The notes beneath the pieces are model-generated. The model saw only the letters and a list, made by a program, of their open reading frames with translations, had not been told where the DNA came from and made no database searches. DNA of 63,755 nt, counting the filler, from Squatina squatina (taxonomy: Eukaryota): NCBI GenBank assembly GCA_031763465.1. It is 4 parts of 4 records of this genome, joined end to end, with 100 filler letters (N's around TTAATTAATTAA, not from the genome) between each part and the next. Parts side by side here need not be neighbours in the genome. Positions count along the whole stretch, not along the records: positions 13,261 to 35,094 come from JARFOE010000189.1; 3 more parts are not named here. One strand, written 5' to 3'. Positions 8,746 through 63,755 of the stretch are shown here, one piece after another (position 1 is the stretch's first letter; each line of letters begins with the position of its first letter). A program made the translations under genes and the position numbers.

Positions 8746-8814
8746 CTGAAATGAAGTTGCATACGAGTTAGTCAAGTGGTATCTTGCTGAGTGCTGAACC
8801 AAGGATGTTCTAGT

Positions 8815-9479
8815 AGACAATATGCCATTACTAAGATCACCGTAGACCGTGTGCCATTTCCAAGGTCACCGTAGACTGTGTGCCATTACCAAGGTCACCG
8901 TTGGCCAGACGCCATTGCTAAGATCACCGTAGGCCAAAGGCCATTGTCAAGATCACCATAGGCCAGACGCCATTACCAAGGTCACCGTAGGCCATGTGCC
9001 ATTGCTGAGATCACCGTGGACAGTGTGCCATTGCTGAGATCACCGTAGAACATATGCCATTGCTAAGATTACCGCAGGCCATACGCCATTACTAAGATCA
9101 CTGTAGACCATACTCCATTGCTAAGATCGCAGTAGGCCGTGTGCCATTGCTAAGATCACCATAAGCCATACGCCATTGCCAAGATCACAGTAGGCCATAT
9201 GCTATTGCTGAGATCACCGTTGACCGTGTGCCATTGCTAAGACCACCGTAAACTGTATGCCATTGCTAAGATTACCGTAGGCCATACTCCATTGCTAAGA
9301 TCACAAACCATTTGCCATTACTAAGATCACTATAGACCACACACCATTGCTAAGATCACCGTACACCATATGCCAATGCTAATATCACTGAAACCATGTA
9401 CCATTGCTGAGATCACCGTAGGCCATACGCCATTGCTGAGATCACCGTAGACCATATGCCATTGCTGAGATCACCATAG
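8815..9479. repeat. 29-bp minisatellite, about 22-23 copies, runs into a gap
   Basis: Tandem degenerate units of GCCATTGCTAAGATCACCGTAGACCATAT. Confidence 0.95.
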
Positions 9480-10004
9480 NNNNNNNNNNNNNNNNNNNNN
9501 NNNNNNNNNNNNNNNNNNNNNNNNNNNNNNNNNNNNNNNNNNNNNNNNNNNNNNNNNNNNNNNNNNNNNNNNNNNNNNNTTCAATAAATATTAATGCAAA
9601 AGGGCAGTGCTTCATGGAAGCTAATCGAAGATACTGAGCTGCAAAGTAACAAACATTCTTACTCTGTTCCCCTGCCTTTTGTTTTGTAGAGAGTCAGGTC
9701 AAAGTTAAAGAAGGCATCGCAGAGCTCTTTGCAATATTTGGGTGCAATAACTATTGCCCCAAAGACATGGCCATGTGCACAAGCTTTTTTATTTAATATA
9801 TAAACACCCTTTTGGCATTTGCTAGGAAATCAGCAAAGATTTGTCTCTTTACACGTCATTGTAAACAATCAGGAGTGTTTATGCAGTTCCCTTGTGTATA
9901 ATTTGCAGAAATCAGCAGGGTTATTCAAACATTCAGCAGAGTAAATGACAGGCAGACTCCTCTCATCCAGGTCTGTCAAGCTGGTCAGTATTTAGGCACA
10001 ATGG

Positions 10005-13103: not shown

Positions 13104-13204
13104 CTGGAAAGAAAAAGCATTCGAGAGTTATACTGGTCAGGGACACACAAGCACACCATTNNNNNNNNNNNNNNNNNNNNNNNNNNNNNNNNNNNNNNNN
13201 NNNN

Positions 13205-13216
13205 TTAATTAATTAA
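13205..13216. other. Artificial scaffold linker TTAATTAATTAA
   Basis: Centred in a 44N+12+44N spacer and gives stop codons in all six frames. Identical to the linkers at 35139 and 47741. Confidence 0.95.
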
Positions 13217-14414
13217 NNNNNNNNNNNNNNNNNNNNNNNNNNNNNNNNNNNNNNNNNNNNCTACTAGCGGGGCGTGGATCTACCATGTTAGCGCCTCCGA
13301 TAACTCCTGCTCAATTTCGCAGAAGCCGGTAGCGCCCCACCCCGTCCGGGCGAAAACAGGTTGGTGCTCTGTTAGCACCCCAGGGGGCACTAACGGGAGG
13401 CGCACAACATGGGAATTTTGCCCCAGAAGAGTCGTAGATATCTCGAACTAAAAAAAAGTAATTCATTTGCTGAGAAGTGCTTTGGAATGTCCTGAGGATG
13501 TGAAAGGCGCTTTATAAATCCAAGTTCTTTCTTTCTACAGTGTAACATGGGTGCACTCGGCGGACCAAAATTATCTTTCCATTCCTGTACGCTCATGTTT
13601 CGAACTGTAGGGCTTTCTCAGTTCTCATCACTGGTGGGTGGGCCAGAAATTGAAGGACATATTGCAGAAAGACAGGGAACCTTGATTTCATTTCTAAAGT
13701 AACTGTAATGAATTTCAGATTCAATGCTTTCCAGACCAATAGTGCGAGTGAAAGATGTTAACTGAGTGGGAATCCAATATTACAGTTAAACATAAGAGGC
13801 TTTTAAACCACTCAGTTCTGCGGCTTCCAGAGGACCAAGGTAATAATAAAAATATGTCTAATACATTACTTTTTGAAGACAGCCATAACTACCTTCAGGC
13901 AGAACTGTCTTATTTTAATTAAACTGCAGTATGTCCTTCAATTTTCTGTCCACCGACTTTAAATGACATCTGGAAAAGGCCCTTCAGTTAGGAACATATA
14001 AATGGACAGGGACTGCTGTCAATGCAACTCTCCTTTCAGAACTAAAGAATGCCACCACAAATTCAATTCTGTCTCCAGGACGATGGTTATTTTCCGATGC
14101 ACAAAGGTTGTTGTACAAAGTCCTTCAACGATTGATAGTCGGGTTTCATGGAACCGCAATGCTTTAAAAAAAAAACCCTTAAAGTGTATTGTCACCCAAT
14201 ACAGAAGCACTGAAAAAAAAAGTTAAATTTGTTCACAGGACAGATCGGTGATGTGATCGCAAAGATAAGTACAGGTGGGGGAGTCCACTCATCCTGTCGA
14301 GGTCACCTTCCGTAGAAACCAACTGCATCCCTAATCCCAACTTCTGACAGCCTCTTGAATGACGCCAGAGTTTCTGCCCGAGCTACCCCACCCGGAAACC
14401 GTTCCAGATATTAA

Positions 14415-14625: not shown

Positions 14626-15334
14626 AATAGGTTGAACTCTAACCTCTGCACACAGCCAGCTTGACTCAGTGTACTGAATAGCCAGGACATTCACGGATTT
14701 GAAAATTATTTGTAAAAGATAATTTTTTGGAATTTGTACTGTGAAGTAGAATCAAATGGCTTGAGGTACAAGTATGTCTTAAAGGAGTTTTTGCGTGCCG
14801 TCTAAGATTATAAATGTAACTCTTCTGTGCAAATTAGGTTGTGCCTAATCCTGCTGTATAATTAGTTAAAGCCACTCATTGCCCCCCATCAAAACACCCC
14901 TGTGTTTTCTTCCCTATCAAAAAGAATACATGCAGTCAAGCATTGCCATTCTGTGGTGTGTTTTTCAGATCAACCCAGCAGGAGAGAAACATCTAAAATG
15001 TGTAATGACATTTATATGCCTTCCCAGTATCTAATCTTAATACTAATCTAATGAAAAACACTTTTATTTACTGTTCAAAGGGAAAGAGATTTAAGTTGAT
15101 GCAGATGTTTTAAGGTTTTTGGGATGTCTCCTCTCACCATGCTCCTCTTCCGACCAAACATGCTCCAGGTTTCATACCACGTTTTTCTTATGGAATAAGC
15201 CTGATTGGGGATAGTATTCGTCTGGCTTACGACTAGCTATGGACAGTAAACTGCCTTATTTTAATGGAACAGGCTTGTAGGAGACTCTATTTATCAATGC
15301 ACTGCACGCATGAGGTTAGAAAGGTAAGATGTCT

Positions 15335-15910
15335 ACATCAGCTGCCGTGTGAGCTGTATCTCTCTGTGCCAGCTCCTGGTCTGTTCTGCACTCTGATTAA
15401 ATACTTTGCTCTCCACCTCCACCAAGACTGACCTAAGCAGTGATTGTGTGTGGGAAAGGCCCCCCTTTAAGTAGTGAGGTGGCCTGAGAGCTGATTGGAA
15501 CCAGTTACTCTTTTGGGAGTAAAACAATTAATTAACAACATACAAATAACAAATTAAACTAAATACAACATGAATTTAAACAAAAACCCCGGTGCTCAAA
15601 TTAAAAGCCCATCGTCCCCAGTGAGGATGCACTCCAGTCCCCCTGGCGCCCACTGGTCGCGGAAGACCGCGAGCGTGATTGGAAGCAATTAGGCCAAATG
15701 AGGAATTCAGCAGCTGAAATAAACTAAGAAAATCAGTATTAAGCATGGGCCCTTTAGCACTGAAATTAGCACATTTTTTTAAAGTTGTCTGACCATTATT
15801 TTCAAAGTGCTGCATTGTAGGCCTTAACAAAAAATTTCAAAGACCTGAACTTTACGCTGCCCAATTCGGCCCTTAGTGCCAGAAACTCAGAAAACCCAAC
15901 TTGGTTGCCC
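15335..15910 (-). mobile_element. Harbinger-type DNA transposon left arm (truncated), interrupted by a Tx1 insertion
   Basis: GGG terminus at 15910 flanked by TAA. Collinear with 62598-62970 (CTTTGAAAA...TGCTA.TT..AG.GCTAA...ATTTCAGC...TAAAGG), including ACGGCAGCTGA at 15348, which matches the ATGGCAGCTGA start at 62959. Confidence 0.75.
15509..15676 (-). mobile_element. Tx1-clade non-LTR retrotransposon, 5'-truncated 3' end
   Basis: ORF2 end TLAVFRDQWAPGGLECILTGDDGLLI-stop, then a T-rich 3' UTR ending CCCAAAAGA. Flanked by an imperfect 16-17-bp direct repeat (15493-15508 and 15677-15692). The 3' UTR is homologous to 47197-47290. Confidence 0.8.
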
Positions 15911-16000
15911 TAACTGAGGTGTTATTTTTAAGGTAAAGAATAATGGATAACCCAGAGTGATTGAAAATCTAATAAATTGTTTCAGTTGATGGTTAAAACA

Positions 16001-16215
16001 TAGGTCCTGAAATTGCGATCGGAGGCTACCTGCGTGTGGATTCCTCCGATCGCAAAAATGTCTGCGAACTTACCTGACAGTCCGGGATCCATGTAAACTT
16101 CCTGTCTTCTGCCCCCACAGCTGGGCATGTGCAGCGGGGCTCTGCTCTATCATCTCTAAGATCTGTCAAAGCTTGAATGAAAGATACAAAACTACACTAG
16201 CTCATCAAAAAACAT
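16001..16215 (+). mobile_element. Non-autonomous DNA transposon fragment with a subterminal hairpin
   Basis: Start is homologous to the reverse complement of 45960-46056. Segment 16161-16215 is near-identical to 20891-20945. Confidence 0.7.
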
Positions 16216-28960: not shown

Positions 28961-30838
28961 NNNNNNNNNNNNNNNNNNNNNNNNNNNNNNNNNNNNNNNN
29001 NNNNNNNNNNNNNNNNNNNNNNNNNNNNNNNNNNNNNNNNNNNNNNNNNNNNNNNNNNNNAGTTAGCATCCAGCTGCTGGGTGCTGACCTTCAAACACAG
29101 TTACATGCTGCAGAATATATATTTAACATACTTTTCTACGGTAAATATTGCACATTAAATGTGTACCATTGGCAAAGCTATTAAAACACATTTGACATCT
29201 AAAGGGGCACATGTGGAAAGGCATCACAAATTGGTGTGCACAGCACACTGAAGGCAGTGTAACAATACACAGCCTGAATATGGAGGGGTGATGGTTTATA
29301 GTTCCAGCGATGAAGTACAGTTGAAAAGATTTCACCTTAACTATCAACATTTGAAGCTTTAACAGATTTATCTTTAGGTTTTGTTGAAAAGTTGGAGCAA
29401 TAAGTAATTAGAAAAGACATCATAATCCAAACTGCTTGAATCTACACAACTTCGGAGACTCCAACAGCACAGGAAAGGGCAAATGCTGAGACAAATTGCA
29501 CCTGCACTACAAGTAATTTTATCCAGGGAGTTTTTCTATAAACTACAGAGCTTTAGCATTTCGGGGTCCTTAGCACAGATTGAAGCAGAGCAGAATGAAT
29601 GGAAACAGAGGTCCTTAAAATGAGGTCCTGTCAGAAATGATGAGTGTCTATATAGGGAGTCTTCAAGGAACAGAGAGTTGAAAGTATGTCCAATACATAC
29701 ACTCTCATTATAAGGCTCTCTGTCATAATGCAAGTTGTATTAAAAGGCTAATGGAGCTTAGCTCCCAGGTTTTTAAAATTGCATTTTATGTTGCCTCCTT
29801 ATGTTTTATGTTGGCTCCTAAGGACTTATGAAAGTGAAGGTCTATCAACAAATCCAATGTACCAAAATTTTGGCGAAGGGATCATATCACTCAGATAATG
29901 CAGCACTATTACATTTTTAACAGAAGGTCACAAAAGGTAAAAACACTTGCAAAACTGTACAATTAGAAATGTAAAAAATATCAATTCTCAGTTCCTTGTT
30001 AGCCAACAAATGTTGGGAAATGAATAACTGAGGTAAAATCTTTCTGGCTTAAGGACGTCTTCCTTTAGCTTCCAGCTGTGCAGTGTCACCTTGAGCAACC
30101 AATTAATCTTAAAATGCACCATTTCAAAGTCTCTTTGAACTGGTTANNNNNNNNNNNNNNNNNNNNNNNNNNNNNNNNNNNNNNNNNNNNNNNNNNNNNN
30201 NNNNNNNNNNNNNNNNNNNNNNNNNNNNNNNNNNNNNNNNNNNNNNAGGATAGGAAGTGAGCAACTGAGGGTCTTTTCTTGCAAGCCCACCTTAAACACA
30301 GCCTGCAGTCATTCCTTTACCCGCCACACCACACCCAACCCGAAAGGAAAGAAGCCAAGACAGAGAAGCAGTCGTGGGGAGGGAAAAAGAAACAGAGAGA
30401 TTGAGCAACATGAATTCAGAGTCAGTTCGCAGAGCGCAATCCCTTCGATAGCAGAAAGGAATAACCACAGCAATATTTCTTCCAATATGCTTTGTATTGT
30501 GTAGTCCATTTACCCACAGCTCCTTCCCTTAAGTTACACTGTAAATTTCAAACAGGGCACTGGTGAATTAATTAGCTTGGCCCTATTAGCAATATGTGAG
30601 GTGAGAACTCATTTACATTCAATAAAAGATTACTTAGATTTAACGCAATCTTAATTTTCTTCTGCAAAGTTATAAAAATAAAAAATAAAGGGGAGTTGCG
30701 GCCTGATAAATTAGCCTTTTGAGAACAGTAGATCACGGTGCGTTAGCCTTTTGAAGGGTTTAAGACATGCTTCAGATCCACTTGACTGCAGAGTGAATCT
30801 GAAAATCTCTGCGCCAAGTCCTTTTTATGATCACTTAC

Positions 30839-31020
30839 CACACATACATCAAGATGGCAGTCCTCCAGCGTAATGTCGGATGCCTCACCAGGTCTATAAC
30901 TCCATGAGTTGGTCGACCAATTTTCGTTGCTCCAGCACAGGGTTTTAGTTTCACAAAGGTCTTCTCGTTCCCATTCCTTTGTGCAATATATTGCAGCACC
31001 TCCTCTGCTTCCTCAGTCCT
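30839..31020 (-). CDS. Partial SLC22-family exon (SLC22A15-like), 5' part replaced by satellite
   Basis: RTEEAEEVLQYIAQRNG...VIDLVRHPTLRWRTAILMYVW ends at a phase-2 GTAAGT donor, as in the SLC22 central loop before TM7. The expected upstream PESPRWL and the splice acceptor are absent. Confidence 0.72.
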
Positions 31021-33172
31021 TGGCTCCACTGTTTCCTCCGTCTTTGTCTCCTCTGTTCCCTCAGTCTTTGTCTCCTCTGTTTCCTCAGTCTTTGTCTCCT
31101 CTGTTCCCTCAGTTATTGACTCCTTTTCTGTTTGCTCAGTCTTTTTCTCCACTGTTCCCTCAGTCTTTGTCTCCTCTGTTTCCTCAGTCTTTGTCTCCTC
31201 TCTGGTCCCTCAGTTATTGTCTCCTTTTCTGTTTCCTCAGTCATTGTCTCTCCTCTGTTTCCTCAGTCTTTGTCTCTCCTCTGTTTCCTCACTCTTTGTC
31301 TCCTCTCTGTTTCCTCAGTCTTTGTCTCCACTGTTTCCTCAGTCTTTGTCTCCTCTGTTTCCTCAGTCTTTGTCTCCTCTCTGTTTCCTCAGTCTTTGTC
31401 TCCACTGTTTCCTCAGGCTTTGTCTCTCCTCTGTTGCTCAGTATTTTTCTCCTCTGTTTCCTCAGTCTTTGTTTCCTCTGTTCCCTGAGTCTTAGTTTCC
31501 TCTGTTTCCTCAGTCTTTGACTCCTCTGTTTTCTCAGTCTTTCTCTTCTACCTGTTCCCTCAGTCCTTATCGTCTCTGTTCCCTCAGTCTTTGTCTCCTC
31601 TCTGTTTCCTCAGTCTTTGTCTCCTCTCCGTATCCTGTGTCTTTGTCTCCACTGTTTCCTCAGTCTTTGTCTCTCCACTGTTTCCTCAGTCTTTGTTTCC
31701 TCTGTTCCCTGATCTTAGTTTCCTCTGTTTCCTCAGTCTTTGTCTCCTCTGTTTCCTCAGTCTTTGTCTTCTCTCTGTTTCCTCAGTCTTTGACTCCTCT
31801 GTTTCCTCAGTCTTTGTCTCCTCTGTTTCCTCAGTCTTTGTCTCCTCTGTTTCCTCAGTCTTTATCGTCTCTGTGTTTCCTCAGACTTTGTGTTCTCTCT
31901 GTTTCTGCAGTCTCTTTCTTCTCTGTGTTTCCTCAGACTTTGCCTTCTCTCTGTTTCCGCAGTCTTTTTCTTCTCTGTGTTTCCTCAGACTTTGTCTTCT
32001 CTCTGTTTCCGCAGTCTTTGTGTCCTCTGTTTCCTCTGTCTTTGTTTTCTCTCTGTTTCCTCAGTCTTTGTCTCCTCTCTGTTTCCTCCGTCTTTTGCTC
32101 CTCTGTTTCCTCTGTCTTTTTCTCCTCTGTTTCCTCCGTCTTTGTCTCCACTGTTCCCTCAGTCTTTGTCTCCTCTGTTTCCTCAGGCTTTCTCTCCTCT
32201 CTGTTCCCTCAGTCTTTGTCTCCTCTGTTTCCTCAGTCTTTGTCTCCTCTGTTTCCTCAGTCTTTCTCTCCTCTCTGTTCCCTCAGTCTTTGTCTCCTCT
32301 GTTTCCTCAGTCCTTGCCTCCACTGTTTCCTCAGTCTTTTTCTCCTCTCTGTTCCCTCAGTCTTTGTCTCCTCTGTTTCCTCAGTCTTTGTCTCCTCTGT
32401 TCCCTCAGTTATTGCCTCCTTTTCTGTTTCCTCAGTCTTTTTCTCCACTGTTTCCTCAGTGTTTGTCTCCTCTCTGTTCCCTCAGTCTTTGTCTCCTCTG
32501 TTCCGTCAGTCTTTCTCTCCTCTGTTTACTCAGTCTTTGTCTCCTCTGTTTCCTCAGTCTTTGTCTCCTCTCTGTTCCCTCAGTCTTTGTCTCCTCTGTG
32601 TCCTCAGTCTTTGTCTCCCCTCTGTTCCCTCAGTCTTTTTCTCCTCTGTGTCCTCAGTCTTTGTCTCCCCTCTGTTTCCTCAGTCTTTGTCTCTCCTCTG
32701 TTTCCTCAGTCTTTGTCTCCTCTCTGTTCCCTCAGTCTTTGTCTCCTCTGTTCGCTCAGTCTTTTTCTCCTCTGTGTCCTCTGTCTTTGTCTCCTCTCTG
32801 TTTCCTCAGTCTTTGTCTATACTCTGTTTCCTCAGTCTTTGTCTCCTCTCTGTTTCCTCAGTATTTGTCTCTCCTCTGTTTCCTCAGTCTTTGTCTCCAC
32901 CGTTTCCTCAGTTTTTGTCTCTCCTCTGTTTCCTCAGTCTTTGTGTCATATCTGTTTTCTCAATCGTTGTCTCCTCTCTGTTCCCTCAGTCTTGGTCTCC
33001 TCTGTTCCCTCAGTCTTTTTCTCCTCTGTTTCCTTAGTCTTTGTTTCCTCTGTTCCCTGAGTCTTAGTTTCATCTGTTTCCTCAGTCTTTGTCTCCTCTG
33101 TTTCCTCAGTCTTTGACTCCTCTGTTTTCTCAGTCTTTGTCTTCTCTCTGTTCCCTCTGTCTTTATCGTCTC
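31000..33172. repeat. 24-bp (with 26-bp variants) pyrimidine-rich satellite, over 2.1 kb, runs into a 935-N gap
   Basis: Tandem CTCCTCTGTTTCCTCAGTCTTTGT units. Confidence 0.97.
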
Positions 33173-35778: not shown

Positions 35779-36838
35779 ATCTGATATGCGAATGATTTAC
35801 TGATTAATCTCCAACACAGTTCCCAAGATGGGGATTGCTTCATAAGTGAGAGAATTTAATTCCTGCAGGTGTATCTCTTGGCCCACATTAAACAATTACT
35901 GGAATCAATTGTATAATTATCAAAGAAGTAGTTGGGTTAATTTGACCTCTGATAACATTCCCTACCCCTGAGAGTTACTTTCCTTCAATACCCTCACCCG
36001 GGTTGGGAGCTCACAATATGGGAAATGCAGCATCATTGCCACATGGTGGAACACCGATAGTTGGCACTGATGGGCACACTTTCCTTTTGGTGTTAATTTG
36101 AACAAAAAAGTAGGTGTGAGCTAACAGGTAAGCAGTCTCATTTTTCTGTTCTTTCCCCATACCCTTTAATATTTTTCTGTGTCAAGAATTTCTCTAATTC
36201 CCTCTTAAATATTGTGATTGAATTGGCTCCAGTAGCTAAATGTGGTAATGCATTCCATATTCTAATAACTGGGTGTGAAAACATTTCTTATAATATCCCT
36301 TTCTGCTTCTAATCCTGAGTTTATGGTCCATTATTACCGATTCACCGGTGGATATCATCTTTTCACTGTTTACTCTCTCCCGCCCTCTCATAATTTTGAC
36401 CATTCCTGTTGGATTTCCTCAAATGTTTGTGCTTCAGTGAATGCAGTCCAAGCTTTTCCAAGTCTCTCATCAGTTGTTTTATCCATAATTTGTAATATAT
36501 TTAATGTGAACTGAATCCTGGTATTTTGCGGCAAATTACAGTATGTATTTGTCAGATGACAGCTGTATCGGATCGACTGTGTATGCAGAATTAACTGTGC
36601 TTAATCATATAATAAACCTTTTATGCCTATTAGAAAATTGTTTTTATACTGGGAGCAATAATTAGGCACTTTCAGTCATTTTTGTTCAACTATAACAATT
36701 AACTTGACATTTATGATTTGCAAATCCATTTTGTATTAGCATTTTTCTCTAATTATTATAATTGAAATAATGAACCAAATTTTGTAAACCCCATCTATTT
36801 AGAACACTTTAAAAGCCACCTGTTATTCTGCTTTGCAG

Positions 36839-37437
36839 GAATGACATGTCAAGCGAGGACCTCGTACACAGAAGATGAAGTTCTTTGGGGCCATAGGTTC
36901 CTTCCCGTCATGTCACTAGAAGAAGGCTTTTTCCGTGTAGATTATTCACAATTCCATTCCACTTTTGAGGTCCCCACTTCTCCCTATAGTGTAAAGGAAC
37001 AAGATGAGAAGCTGTCTCTTACATCACCCTGTGCCACTCCCTCCATCAGCAACAGCAAGAACAGGAAAGGGAGAATCTTCTCCTTGGACTGTATCGATAC
37101 CCTCGAGGAAAAGGGCAGCAAATTACCAGCCAAGCTTCAGAAAATGAGCACCTGCAAGGATGACATGCAAAGGAAAGTCCTAAGGATGACTGCAGATATA
37201 GGAGAAAAAACTTGCAGCACCGGGGACCTCCCTCTAAAACTGCAAAAGCTAAGTTCTATCCCCAGCGGTGTTGAGGAAAGACTCCCTCTGAAGGCTTTCA
37301 AAGTCAATTCGGAACCCATCACACAGTCAACTGGGGATCTGTCCCAGAGGGCACAAGGCCTGCAGCCCACAGGGTCACGAATGGAGGACAATTTGCCTGC
37401 CAAACTGAGGAAAATGAATTCTGATCGCCTCACCTAG
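36839..37437 (+). CDS. KCNJ3: G protein-gated inward rectifier K+ channel GIRK1/Kir3.1-type, terminal exon (KCNJ3 or a close paralog)
   Basis: TTTGCAG acceptor, then [20 protein letters not shown]...VDYSQFH.TFEVPT.PYSVKEQ...[14 protein letters not shown]-stop. Confidence 0.88.
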
Positions 37438-43125: not shown

Positions 43126-43143
43126 ATTTATATTAATGATTTA

Positions 43144-43277
43144 GGGCACCCAATTTGACCTCCCTGAGTTACTGGTGCTAACAGATGAATTGTTGAGTGC
43201 AAAGTTCTGGTTTCAGCGCTGCCCCTTTAAGCCATGCAATTCGGGACTTTGAAAATTTTTGACAGTTTTAAAAATTG
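43144..43277 (+). mobile_element. Harbinger-type left terminus
   Basis: TTA|GGGCACCCAATT...TGAGTTACTGGTGCTAA...CTTTGAAAA, homologous to the termini at 15910 and 62598. Confidence 0.6.
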
Positions 43278-45700: not shown

Positions 45701-47196
45701 CGATAGGGGGTGAAATTCCCCCTCCTCCCTTCCCACTGGCCAGGGCNNNNNNNNNNNNNNNNNNNNNNNNNNNNNNNNNNNNNNNNNNNNNNNNNNNNNN
45801 NNNNNNNNNNNNNNNNNNNNNNNNNNNNNNNNNNNNNNNNNNNNNNTACCTGGGGCCTTGCATGTGACTTCTCCAGCCTCTTCAGTTTGACTTGCCCGGG
45901 AAACTAGAGAGCCCCACTCCGAATCTCCAACTCGGGCGGTGGGGGGGCTGGATATCGCAAGCTCCCATGGATCCAGGACCCTTAGGTAAGTACGTAAGGG
46001 AAATTGCAATCAGAGGCACCCACACGCATGAAGCCTCCGATCGCAATTTCAGACCCAATATGTTGTTTAGAGATCATTACGAGAATGTGGCGATACCCCA
46101 CTGATGCCCATATGGTGGCACTGCATATCCAAGTAGGTAGTCTGGAGACTTCCATTTGAGGCCAGGTGGCAATACAGTGGGATGCCTGTAATGATTGACA
46201 GTAATGAGCTGTGCACTCCAGGTAAAAGGTGGATAGAGATTTGTATTCTGGTAAATATATTTCCAGTTATGTAATTTTATAAAATTATTAACAAAGCACA
46301 CATGGTCACAATTCATAATAGCACATTATGTTGTTATGAATCTCCTGTATAATTCATTTTGTTCCTTGCTCCCAGCTGAAGTTCCATTACAGTTACCGGG
46401 GAGGTTGGACCTTAATACGATAAACCTTCACAAATGAAAATGACTTTTGGACCCCAGGGTTCGATCTGACTGTACGGTGGTTATAAAAAGTCCTTTTGGT
46501 GGGTTATGAATGTGATTCCAAATTACACAAATTAAGTTCTGCTGCTACTGATTCCATATTGATATCTGTAGAGTATGATGGACGTTTGCTAAACCAGAGT
46601 TATACTGCTGACTGCACATCACTCAAAGTCGCACTGAGGACACCAACATGTGCAGTGCTCTGCTCCTCCAAGGGTTAATTTTTATTGTTAATAGAGCAGT
46701 AGAGGGATTGTGCCCTTCCTCATGAAGTAAAAAACATTGATAAGCAAGGTTATAAAGTGCTGGTCCAACACAATGCCGAAGCACTTCCAAAGTGTGACAT
46801 TGCACGAATCTGGAGTAATACTGCAACAGACGCAAACTTAAACTGGTGTGAGATGGAGGATGTTTCGCATCGCTTGACTTTAACATGCTCAGGGGTCAGG
46901 TCAGGACCTGGGTTATACTATCACTGCCATGCTCACACAGCTGAAACTGTGTTTCATCAATGTGAAAGTTGTAGTATATCTGTACCCTAAAAAACAACCC
47001 TTCTTTAAATGTTCAGAATGTTTCTTTTATTTTTTATTATCTCTTTNNNNNNNNNNNNNNNNNNNNNNNNNNNNNNNNNNNNNNNNNNNNNNNNNNNNNN
47101 NNNNNNNNNNNNNNNNNNNNNNNNNNNNNNNNNNNNNNNNNNNNNNCCGTGTGCTGTAAGTTTGCACACTAATCTCTTATGTAACTGGAAGCCGGT

Positions 47197-47290
47197 ACCG
47201 GGGTTTTTGTTTAGTTTTGGTTTAATGTTTATTAGTTTAAAGTTTTAATTGTTAATTAATTAGTCTTTTAATTGGATTGCTCCAAAAAGA
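47197..47290 (+). mobile_element. Tx1-clade element, 3' UTR-only copy between perfect 16-bp direct repeats
   Basis: ACCGGGGTTTTTGTTTA...TGTTAATTAATT...CTCCAAAAAGA is homologous to the 3' UTR at 15509-15593. GTAACTGGAAGCCGGT occurs at 47181 and 47291. Confidence 0.8.
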
Positions 47291-47306
47291 GTAACTGGAA
47301 GCCGGT

Positions 47307-47696
47307 TCCTCCGGGAATATCCCTCCGTGCCCTTTAGTTCCGCGCAGAGGGATTCCTGTACGGGCTGTTCCTGCACACCTTCCACTTTGCCATCCTCGCC
47401 TACTGTCTAGACACACCTTGGCGTACCATAATTCCGTCCAGAGAGGTGAGGGTCCTCAGTGGAGGTCTCTCTATGCGGGAGTCCTCCCATGCTCCATCGA
47501 CACTTGGCCTGAAGGGTGTTGCACAGAGCAGTCCCGTGCAATCGGTTTTTAAGTTGGTTCACGGGCTCCCAGGCCGCCTGCCATTTCTGCGGCCTTGAGG
47601 AGTCCATGTTCCATGTTTATTTTGGGTGTGTGAGGTTGCAATCCCTGTTTCATTATTTAAAGGGGCTGCTCCTCAAGTTTTGGTTGCACTTCAGTC
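47307..47696 (+). mobile_element. Tx1-clade retrotransposon ORF2 C-terminal zinc-finger region (degenerate, 5'-truncated)
   Basis: DTPW...PQWRSLYAGVLP...RVLHRAVPCNRFLSWFTGSQAACHFCGLEESMFHVYFGC (CxxC...H...C, zf-RVT type). Confidence 0.88.
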
Positions 47697-59150: not shown

Positions 59151-61764
59151 GGCATTTAACTGTCCCTTCTTTTTTACATCCAACTTCTATGAATAGTCTT
59201 TAACATCTGCGAAAGAAGTGAAGTGTTTTATGCACCCCGCTAAGTCACGAGAGTCAAATCAGTTTGAAGGTCGTCTGAACTGAGAGTAAATGCTCCTGGC
59301 CCCCAAATATTACTTGTTGCACCAAGAAAACACAGTTGTAGTGTGGGGGTTTGCAAATGCTTGTTTATACATGCACAAAACATCGGAATCTCATTGGTCA
59401 CTTTGTGAAAGCAGAAGCGTTTTTACTGTTTGAACTCTGATCAGGAAGACACATTATAATGTGGGGAATGTATATCAGACCAGGCAAAGTGGCATGGTGC
59501 ATTCAGTTCCAGTTTTTCTTCTATAATGCCACTTTTTGGAGAGTTTGGAATGTAATCATCGCGCAATCTTTTCCAAATAGTTGAAAAAAAATCATAGTAC
59601 AAAGGTCGCAAATGCTGAAAATTTGAAGTGCGAATAGAAAATGCGCGGCCACCGATTACTGTCCGAAAGAACAGCATGTCCCAACATTCCGGTAAGGATG
59701 TGTCATCGGTCAATTCTGCTTTATGATCGCTCCCAAAAAACGCGAATCTCTCTTTCTCGCAGATGCTAATTGACTTGCTATGCACTCTCTATACTTATCT
59801 TAAATAATAACCATTAACGTTTTACTGTAGGATTTAATTGTCATTGCTGGTGCTGGAATTGCTATTATTGTAATTGTGCGATGAATGATTTGCTAAATAA
59901 AACATTTAGTTTAATTAATTACAAGAGTAGAACTCCAGCTACCCCGGCGAACCATTTCGCAGGCTCTTTCGATTCTTTCGATTGCAGCTGCACATTTCCG
60001 ACCACCTGCAGCGTGACCCCATTTCCAGGGCGGCCTGTAATCCGCCTCAAACTCTCACTCCGGATACCCCAGAACTTGGGTTGAGGTTGGCAAGACCCGC
60101 AGAAAAAAAGGAATTCTTTAAAACAACGTCCTAGTTATCCAAGTTTAGAAGATGTACTGATTTAAGTACTCTATACTTTGCTGCAATTACATTTCAAACA
60201 TTTTGCCAAATTCTAAAAAAAAAGCTCATTTTTGTTGACCTGGAAAGTACAGGTGTTGAGTCATTGAAGTGTTAGTTGTCATGTTAAAATAAACTGAAAC
60301 TGCTTTAAAGCACAAATTGACCATCCAATACTGCTGTTTCTTGTCCATGCCTTATCTGAACAATCTGGGTTACAGCTTTCGGGCGATCCTGATGACACCT
60401 GTTGATAGATAAATGGAGGTGGCACCAGATGCACAATATATGAGAAGCCTANNNNNNNNNNNNNNNNNNNNNNNNNNNNNNNNNNNNNNNNNNNNNNNNN
60501 NNNNNNNNNNNNNNNNNNNNNNNNNNNNNNNNNNNNNNNNNNNNNNNNNNNAAAGCATCAAAAACATGTAGAATTGTAGCAACAGCCAGAAGAAATAAAC
60601 CAGCAACTAGCCTGTAAGTAGTCGATAATCCCTTTAAATTGCACTTGTGCGGGGTCCTCTATGCTGCTTAATGTTGTGTTCAGCTAAGTGTGGTTAAGAA
60701 AGGACATAGGCTGGAGCGTGGAGCTCCAAAATGGCAGCGCTGGTGTCAAATCAGTGTTGCACATTGATTGGCACCATGATCNNNNNNNNNNGCCTGCTTT
60801 GCATACATTCCGCAGACGTTAGTTTTGTGCGCTAACCCCTTTACCAATATGGTGTCAGGCACACAATTTGTGTCAGAAGTGCATGCATCGTGGATGCCAT
60901 TTTGGAATCTTAAAGGGCCTTGTAGCACCCAAAAAATGGCCCCGACTGAGCCTAGTTTCGCCCATCTGTCCATTGCACTGTATTTCAATCTTTTAGGTAT
61001 AACACTGTTAAAATCTCAGAAATTAAAATTCGCATACCTCCTAAAGAACCTTGCAGATTTTCTTTCCACTGAAATGTGTTATCCTCCCTGCCAGATTTTT
61101 CTCTCTGCACTCTGCCCAGGCAGTAAAGATGAAAATCTACTTCATGTTATCATTCATGGTAAGTTTATCCAAATTACAGAAAGGACCCGCTCTCCTTATA
61201 AATGGTTTGTTGTTGGTTATATTTCAATGATAATTTAAATCATTCTCTTGTGATTATGTATTACTTTTTAAATATTGTTCCATCACACAGATGAGTTGCT
61301 GATTGATGACTGATTATTAAATATTTTAGACAGAAAATATTGCACCTTGTGCATTATTTATGTCTCATCAAATCAACCTACGTTACACATGAGGTACTAT
61401 CCCTAGTGTACCTGATAATATATTAAAGTTAAATAGAGTAAAAATAAATCAAAAAACCTTAGTAAAAGCATATTTAATATTCTAGTCTTATCTCTACAGT
61501 CTGATGGTTCTTCTTGGAACTAAATTAATGCATAAATGTAACATAGTTGGTACTGATTCACCTTCATATAGGCCTCTTTATAGCCTGGAAATTGCTCTTG
61601 GCTTAATTTCCTGCACCATTGGCAATCATGCAGGTGGGACAATCATTTTATNNNNNNNNNNNNNNNNNNNNNNNNNNNNNNNNNNNNNNNNNNNNNNNNN
61701 NNNNNNNNNNNNNNNNNNNNNNNNNNNNNNNNNNNNNNNNNNNNNNNNNNNGCCGGTTTTGAAC

Positions 61765-61903
61765 ATAGGTTTTGTTTTGTGATGCCAAGAAATTTTCTAA
61801 GATGCCAATGCCCTGACTTAAAGGGACAGCTCTATTAGGGCGCTAAAATTACACCTATTGGCCCCATATAGCCACCAGCTATAAAAAAGCCAATTGGGCG
61901 CCC
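61765..61903 (-). mobile_element. Harbinger-type terminus, inverted homolog of 62598-62735
   Basis: Reverse complement GGGCGCCCAATTGG...TATGGGGCCAA...TAATTTTAGCGCCC...CCTTTAA aligns with 62598 onward. Confidence 0.72.
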
Positions 61904-62597: not shown

Positions 62598-63755
62598 GGG
62601 CGCTCAATTGGTCTTTTCTAAGTTTGTAGCGCTATGGGACCAAAATCTATAATTTTAGCGCCCATTTAACGCTAATCCTTTAAAGTTGTTGAATTGGAGT
62701 CTTTGAAAAGAAAGTTCTGGCAGCTTAAAAATCATGCTATTTTGAGCGCTAATCAGTTCCTCATGGGCGCTAATTCACTTCGACACATTTCAGCAGGCCA
62801 ATTGCACAAATGATCTAATGGCACCAACTCTCAACCCAGCTTAGCCCATAAAGGTGCTCGTTTTTCAAACACTGTTTTGGTTAGTGCAGGAAGCCTCTGT
62901 CAGAATCAGTCCTGTATCGTGTGTGTGAGTTTTTGTGGTGTCTGCCTGAGAGTCACCCATGGCAGCTGAGTTGTCGAGGAGGGCAAGAGCCCGAATGTTC
63001 TCTGAGCCAGGCCTTGAGACGCTGGTCTCAGCTGTGGCCAGAAGGGCGCGAACCCTATTTGCACATGCTGGAAGAAGGGGAAGCGCAAGCATGGTACGCC
63101 GTTCCTGGAGTGAGGTCGCGTCGGAAGTGTCAGCCACTGATGTGGCACCAAGGAGTGGCACATAGTGCCGCAAGAAACTTAACGACCTCACATGGATTGT
63201 CAGGGTGAGTGTGACTCTTTAAGTAATTGGCGCATCATTACTAAGACTCTCATTTGCATAGTGCCATAGTAATGATATAGTTTAGGATGTGCTTATAGTA
63301 CAAGCCTGCATAATCGCACCCACTGTCCATTACACACCTCCTGCCAATGGTATAAGGTGGCCACTTGAATGCGAAGGGTAGGGATTAATGCAATTGTCCT
63401 TGTACACGCAGGTGAGACTCGTATCCATCAAGGCCAATCGTAACAGGGCCGGTGCACAACTGGGGGACATGGTGGAGCTAACTCAGACAGATGTGGCCCA
63501 CATCATCGGGGAGGATACGGGAGAGCCTGTGGTCAGGGGGGGTGTCGTTATGCCCCCTGAAGATGAAGGTGAGTAAGACCACAGTGACTTGCTCTTTGCC
63601 CTGTTCCCATCAAGAAGTGAGGTGTGCTGCTCTGCAGTCTTGACCTCACACCTTATCTTTATGTCCCTTTTATTCCATTGTGTCTTGCAGACATTGTGTC
63701 CTTTCCTGAAGTTCCAGGGTTTCCAAATTTGGCCACGCTCTCCTCAGAAGCCTTG
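62598..63755 (+). mobile_element. PIF/Harbinger DNA transposon, left part, extends past the window end
   Basis: GGGCGCTCAATTGG terminus followed, about 360 bp in, by a spliced Myb/SANT-like gene. Confidence 0.8.
62959..63755 (+). pseudogene. Harbinger Myb/SANT-like DNA-binding protein gene; exons 62959-63204, 63412-63568 and 63691-end
   Basis: MAAELSRRARARMFSEPGLETLVSAV...WSEVASEV...PRSGT*CRKKLNDL (TAG in place of the usual Gln). GTGAGT donors and CAG acceptors, with the frame preserved across all three exons. Confidence 0.82.

Follow-up and report, generated by a model that had tools for sequence, protein, structure and literature searches.

The 3′ end of a Tx1-clade LINE lies in the 5′ arm of a Harbinger-type DNA transposon of Squatina squatina, at a motif, TAACTG(G), that recurs at a second Tx1 locus of the same window. 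The reading that we hold to be reasonably probable is that of a LINE with a sequence-specific Tx1 endonuclease, for which the TAACTG of Harbinger-type arms is a main, recurrent, and non-exclusive target. The arm is probably a recurrent landing site of this Tx1 family, and not its sole one. The window, that is, the whole stretch of DNA that was analysed, comprises 63,755 nt of assembly GCA_031763465.1 in four joined parts, with the 15-kb locus coming from JARFOE010000189.1. This stretch of the assembly is fragmented and repeat-rich, with 44 N-runs across the window. TTAATTAATTAA spacers stand at 13205, 35139, and 47741, inside 100-base gaps starting at 13161, 35095, and 47697. These gaps look like scaffold joins and are probably artificial; the loci at 15, 47, and 62 kb may thus lie apart in the genome, without linkage.

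The Tx1 Insert and Its Target-Site Duplication

Tx1 proper occupies 15508–15676 on the minus strand and represents the last 169 nt of the element, ending in ...AAAAGAG. It contains the last 26 codons of ORF2 and the stop (TLAVFRDQWAPGGLECILTGDDGLLI plus stop; 15596–15676, minus strand), the element being 5′-truncated here, and a T-rich 3′ UTR without poly(A), which runs from ACCGGGGTTTTTGTTTA to ...CCAAAAGAG (15508–15595, minus strand) and is common to 47197–47291. On the same strand, the insert is framed by a 15-bp duplication, whose upstream copy TAATTGCTTCCAATC (15677–15691) and downstream copy TAACTGGTTCCAATC (15493–15507) are alike at 13 of 15 positions. The downstream copy includes a CCAAT word at 15498–15494. 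In reads of empty arms, the match extends to 15507, after which the sequence goes on as GGC.... An earlier note on this DNA had placed the insert at 15509–15692; its length of 184 nt stands, but the Tx1 sequence itself is 15508–15676 and the other 15 nt are a copy of the duplication.

Assignment to the Tx1 clade comes from the 47-kb locus, where a tblastn search with the ORF2 protein of Xenopus Tx1L (YTX2_XENLA, P0063) matches 47486–47695 with 51% identity over 70 aa (E = 4.5e-18), and the shared 3′ UTR links the 15-kb piece to it. The 26-aa ORF2 piece is itself weakly similar to the C-terminus of Xenopus Tx1L ORF2 (9/20, E = 0.025) and matches the C-terminus of P0045 with E = 3e-4. At both loci, 5′ truncation, an intact 3′ end, and a target-site duplication are found together, as in the Tx1 clade. 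The window carries C-terminal Tx1 fragments only, and full-length homologues carry PF03372 and PF00078. Among the close relatives of the Tx1 piece, one is in Heterodontus francisci and others are in sturgeon and turtle. A scan for further loci by Tx1 protein alignment confirmed none of 94 viral, 106 metagenome, and 52 prokaryote contig candidates. A 17-nt motif of the UTR was matched at 125 loci, 8 of them viral and 117 from metagenomes, and none of these matches extends beyond 34 nt or encodes Tx1 protein.

Counted from the terminus at 15910, the first base of the duplication is base 220 of its arm; the counterpart TAA of the 62-kb arm, at 62816, is base 219. These positions correct the distances given before, about 218 bp and about 217 bp (62815). 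The Myb start is found 159 nt downstream of the beginning of the duplication in the 15-kb arm and 143 nt in the 62-kb arm, as against the roughly 150 bp given in the same note. The CCAAT word of the duplication precedes the TATA-like TTAAA by 28 nt and the Myb start by 150 nt, and the Tx1 insert and the Myb gene have the same sense. The target region is a putative promoter, predicted from these CCAAT and TATA-like words upstream of the Myb start.

The Harbinger-Type Host Arm and Its Relatives

The outer part of the host's 5′ arm begins with GGGC at 15910 and extends to 15692 on the minus strand. It aligns to 62598 onward and to 43141–43274, and it is multicopy in reads. The TTA just outside the terminus (15911–15913, minus strand) may, from its sequence, be one half of the 3-bp host duplication left by the Harbinger-type element. 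The inner part (15338–15492, minus strand) includes the TATA-like TTAAA at 15470–15466 and a decayed Myb start ACGGCAGCTGA (15348–15338), the counterpart of ATGGCAGCTGA at 62959. The 15-kb element ends with this decayed start, and read depth is zero left of 15345. The reference for these comparisons is an uninterrupted related Harbinger-type arm at 62598–62958 on the plus strand, identified by alignment, behind which stands a Myb/SANT-like exon 1 whose codon 69 is an in-frame stop (62959–63204, plus strand). This exon matches Pfam Myb_DNA-bind_5 with E = 6e-4 and 20.2 bits, just under the cut-off of 21.7, and its first match in Atlas (0.88) is of the same family; a search for homologues in longer proteins gave none among 434 candidates. 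A third related arm, TTA followed by GGGCACCCAAT (43141–43277, plus strand; 66% over 138 nt, E = 3e-12), breaks off at a gap and does not reach the target position.

When the two flanks are joined without 15509–15692 and the minus strand is compared with 62598–62885, the local alignment score is 106.5, and none of 500 dinucleotide shuffles scores above 55. Together with the 184-nt empty joints in reads, this bears out the earlier claim that removal of the insert restores an arm collinear with the one at 62598. The outer flank alone scores 74.5, which is reached by none of 500 shuffles. The inner flank alone (15335–15508) scores 38, also reached by none of 500 (maximum 35.5), and when this flank is widened to 15200–15508, 3 of 500 shuffles reach 38, so that it is marginal when taken alone. 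From the terminus to the Myb start, the 15-kb and 62-kb arms agree at 237 of 326 aligned bases, and their alignment has 118 gap columns; by this measure, they are related subfamilies and not copies. The earlier identification of a Tx1-clade insert in a Harbinger-type 5′ arm agrees with both the ORF2 and 3′ UTR matches and the arm alignment.

All four arms of the window begin with GGG(C)...CAA, and TTA stands outside the terminus in two of them (15911 and 43141) and is absent at 61903 and 62598. Harbinger elements prefer TTA/TAA as target site. Judged from the sequence, the combination of a GGG terminus, TTA on its outer side, and a Myb gene behind it fits Harbinger, the PIF/Harbinger traits including a Myb/SANT-like ORF and a 3-bp target-site duplication (PMC9179366). 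A pattern search near 15.3 kb for the partner terminal inverted repeat found none, one terminus being present; the 15-kb copy ends at the Myb start and the 62-kb element runs off the window. Because no second end was found near 15.3 kb, the host is termed Harbinger-type for caution. Read depth is above zero in all bins of 15345–15924 and zero on the unique flanks (15200–15344 and 15925–15982). Hence, both host flanks of the insert belong to one multicopy element, and the reservation that one host flank only is fully visible does not hold.

At 62 kb, two related Harbinger-type arms lie back to back (61752–61903 and 62598–63755), about 690 nt apart and with their termini facing. Behind the right one lies a Myb gene of two exons, which has one stop and a probable frameshift.

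A Second Tx1 Locus with Stacked Copies

At 47 kb, on the plus strand, the sequence displays a perfect 15-bp duplication, TAACTGGAAGCCGGT, the first copy of which (47182–47196) is followed by a 95-nt Tx1 3′ UTR of the same family as at 15 kb, ending in AAAAGAG (47197–47291). The second TAACTGGAAGCCGGT copy (47292–47306) leads directly into another Tx1 copy, a 5′-truncated and frameshifted ORF2 piece (47307–47696) that is stacked at the site and runs into the assembly gap. The simplest history for this locus would be two insertions at one site, the duplication made by the first serving the second. Like the duplication at 15 kb, this one is 15 bp long, and it begins with TAACTGG, both loci having a start of the form TAA(C/T)TG; the two sites agree at the initial 7 bases and at a single further position among the 15. 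TAACTGG occurs at seven strand positions in the window, three of them at these insertions, and the other four among 117,892 strand positions elsewhere, so that the shared start of the duplications at 15 and 47 kb is not due to chance. The motif is host-derived, since it precedes the insert at 47182 and is present in arms that are empty. For the same reason, GTAACTGG was rejected as the element's own tail, only its G being element-derived.

The host at 47 kb is visible over 50 bases, which gave no match beyond chance when compared on both strands with nine arms and small repeats (the best of the 18 tests was reached in 2 of 300 shuffles). A word common to this host and the small repeat 13261–13430, GAAGCCGGT, is not significant, being reached in 35 of 300 shuffles. 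The 34 nt upstream of the site were considered as Tx1 ORF2 and rejected, because the homologues are proline-rich there. A gap of 100 N (47047–47146) lies 35 nt upstream of the site and may hide another repeat arm. As its sequence stands, the 47-kb locus tells for sequence specificity and speaks against Harbinger arms as the exclusive target. For target specificity, Kojima (2015) used a threshold of >20% of one flank type; in this window, the arm flank is found at one of the two loci.

Empty and Filled Arms in Public Reads

Four public runs were aligned on 15200–16050 at 80% likeness. X5 consists of raw capture reads, about a third of which was read, and X1 to X3 are contigs from a single study (P1). 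The pieces described are the best 24 of 5,117, and the loose ends the best 24 of 885, longest or best supported first. This selection favours bridging pieces, and therefore no fraction of occupancy or preference is derivable from the reads. As only 37 of 15,629 X5 reads are at least 99% alike to the window and its unique flanks are uncovered, the runs may represent another species or a shallow sample. Depth rises from 235 at 15520 to 260 at 15517, but both positions are indel sites and the rise was therefore not used.

Empty arms are present in these data. At least 321 X5 reads, over the best 14 of 45 joints, skip the insert, and three of the joints listed skip exactly 184 nt, with 23, 62, and 7 X5 reads (at least 92). 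On the plus strand, the empty arms read CCAGTTA and then GGC, which places the cut before TAACTG and assigns the last G to Tx1. Since 584 of 802 X5 reads have G at 15688, the family form of the site is TAACTG.

Filled arms are present as well. Among the best 24 of 5,117 pieces, three span the junction of arm and Tx1 3′ end, with at least 31 bases on each side: record 3 of X1 (15463–15602) and records 9 (15427–15561) and 10 (15465–15561) of X2. All three come from study P1, are about 85–90% alike to the window copy, and show the 3′ junction only. Because records 9 and 10 of X2 overlap and yet differ, there are at least two other filled copies. Among the other junction pieces listed, two stop 11–12 bases into the duplication, one stops after 3 bases, and one combines 105 bases of arm with 10 of the Tx1 end. 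With the motif shared at 47 kb, the three bridging contigs listed support a sequence-specific cut and a position occupied in other copies, and to this extent the interpretation of the earlier note.

Around the target (15449–15715), the reads comprise several arm subfamilies that differ from each other. One uniform arm subfamily (1,272 reads, agreement 0.95) diverges at 15455.

Target-Site Specificity and Competing Explanations

The favoured explanation runs as follows. The endonuclease would nick the lower strand just before TAACTG(G), and target-primed reverse transcription would then copy the Tx1 RNA from its 3′ end (...AAAAGAG). A cut of the upper strand 15 bp further on would yield the 15-bp duplication. 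The conserved TAACTG found 219–220 bp inside an abundant Harbinger-type 5′ arm would be a main and repeatedly used target, entered in the sense of the Myb gene. The duplication would restore the site, so that copies can stack, as at 47 kb, and if the target is a short motif in context, other sites would be used too. By analogy with Tx1L, the site would be set by the endonuclease of the element itself; the Tx1L enzyme nicks its own target almost exclusively (PMC1950540).

If the element preferred the short motif TAACTG(G) alone, Harbinger arms would be mere multicopy carriers receiving a minor share of the insertions. The 47-kb site speaks for this, since it shares just 8 of 15 bases with the arm site and has a flank that is not arm-like, leaving one of the two window loci in an arm. 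Yet a word of 6–7 nt is common (TAACTG is at 36 of 117,892 strand positions of the window), and one would expect copies to scatter, whereas none of the seven pieces with a Tx1 3′ junction among the best 24 of 5,117, a biased selection, has a foreign flank. The gap near the 47-kb site, which may conceal a repeat arm, further weakens the case, and we regard this explanation as unlikely. We give somewhat less credit still to a single old insertion in a Harbinger copy that later spread as a non-autonomous composite. In that case, the bridging contigs would be descendants, and their 3′ junctions and their divergence from the window copy are what old descendants would show. Among the pieces listed, however, none bridges the 5′ junction of the window copy (15676), an absence that fits separate insertions, and 1,498 reads continue past 15677 into further ORF2 sequence, although this count includes all Tx1 relatives. 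Such a composite would also leave the motif, the duplication length, and the stacking at 47 kb unexplained. Chance nesting of an unspecific LINE, or an artefact of assembly, might be suspected given the many N-runs and repeats and the two mismatches in the 15.5-kb duplication. It is nevertheless largely refuted, and very improbable, in view of the exact 184-nt empty joints, the other copies that are filled at this very base, and the cut motif recurring at a second locus.

Comparison with Known Tx1 Systems

In principle, the nesting of Tx1 elements in DNA transposons, Harbingers included, is already in print (PMC4494074), and such nesting has been reviewed as a safe-haven strategy (PMC6719617). 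That Harbinger elements would serve this retrotransposon as a multicopy safe harbour is a hypothesis of the earlier note. The closest parallel there is Tx1-9_AMi of the American alligator, which prefers a site about 300 bp inside Harbinger 5′ ends (Kojima 2015, PMC4494074). Both are Tx1-clade LINEs at one position in Harbinger 5′ arms, across related Harbinger families. They differ in that the alligator site is at about 300 bp and in a crocodilian, versus 219–220 bp in a cartilaginous fish, the comparison being one of described host and position only. Figure S4 of the same paper may show the same target.

Tx1L of Xenopus laevis in Tx1D provides another example of a sequence-specific Tx1 endonuclease aimed at a DNA transposon (PMC4494074, PMC1950540, PMC6719617). 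Its host, however, is a non-autonomous piggyBac family and its specificity is biochemical, whereas here it is read from genomic footprints alone. Tx1-Mar and SINEU-3 in Mariner-N4_AMi share with the present element the fixed positions and the sequential insertions that sandwich a duplication, as at 47 kb (PMC4494074). The duplication of SINEU-3 is 16 nt, and preference varies among SINEU families from 13% to 90% of copies. In that system, unlike here, the host is a Mariner with two target regions, one of them antisense (PMC4494074), and no SINE partner was seen in the present data.

In the literature outside Repbase Reports and most subscription journals, no description was found of Tx1 insertion into Harbinger arms in sharks or rays. 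The present case adds a second vertebrate lineage with Tx1 landing in Harbinger arms, defines the cut motif and the duplication length, and makes testable whether Harbinger targeting in the Tx1 clade arose once or several times. It is conceivable, if rather doubtful, that one Tx1 lineage acquired long ago the habit of targeting the putative promoter region in the 5′ arms of Harbingers, and that cartilaginous fish and crocodilians have had it in common for more than 400 million years, with the cut at the CCAAT word upstream of the Myb gene. Keno is a retrotransposon that tracks the U2 genes; if the ancient trait were real, a retrotransposon would have tracked a moving and fast-changing DNA transposon just as steadily.

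Other Features of the Window

A separate multicopy repeat starts about 70 nt to the right of the arm terminus: 15985–16160 is 74% alike to 45940–46064 over 128 nt and has a high read depth. A minisatellite at 8755–9480 consists of more than 20 copies of 29-bp units. Tandem repeats with units of 24–26 bp extend for about 2.3 kb at 30835–33170, and their minus strand is open as an (EETKT)-rich peptide. The stretch that adjoins them reads like what we take to be an exon of an SLC22 transporter, for which a Pfam search gave no match; the repeat may have arisen from this exon or expanded into it. An inward-rectifier potassium channel is represented at 36766–37437 by one exon (Pfam IRK_C, E = 1.6e-17), which has a long C-terminal extension.
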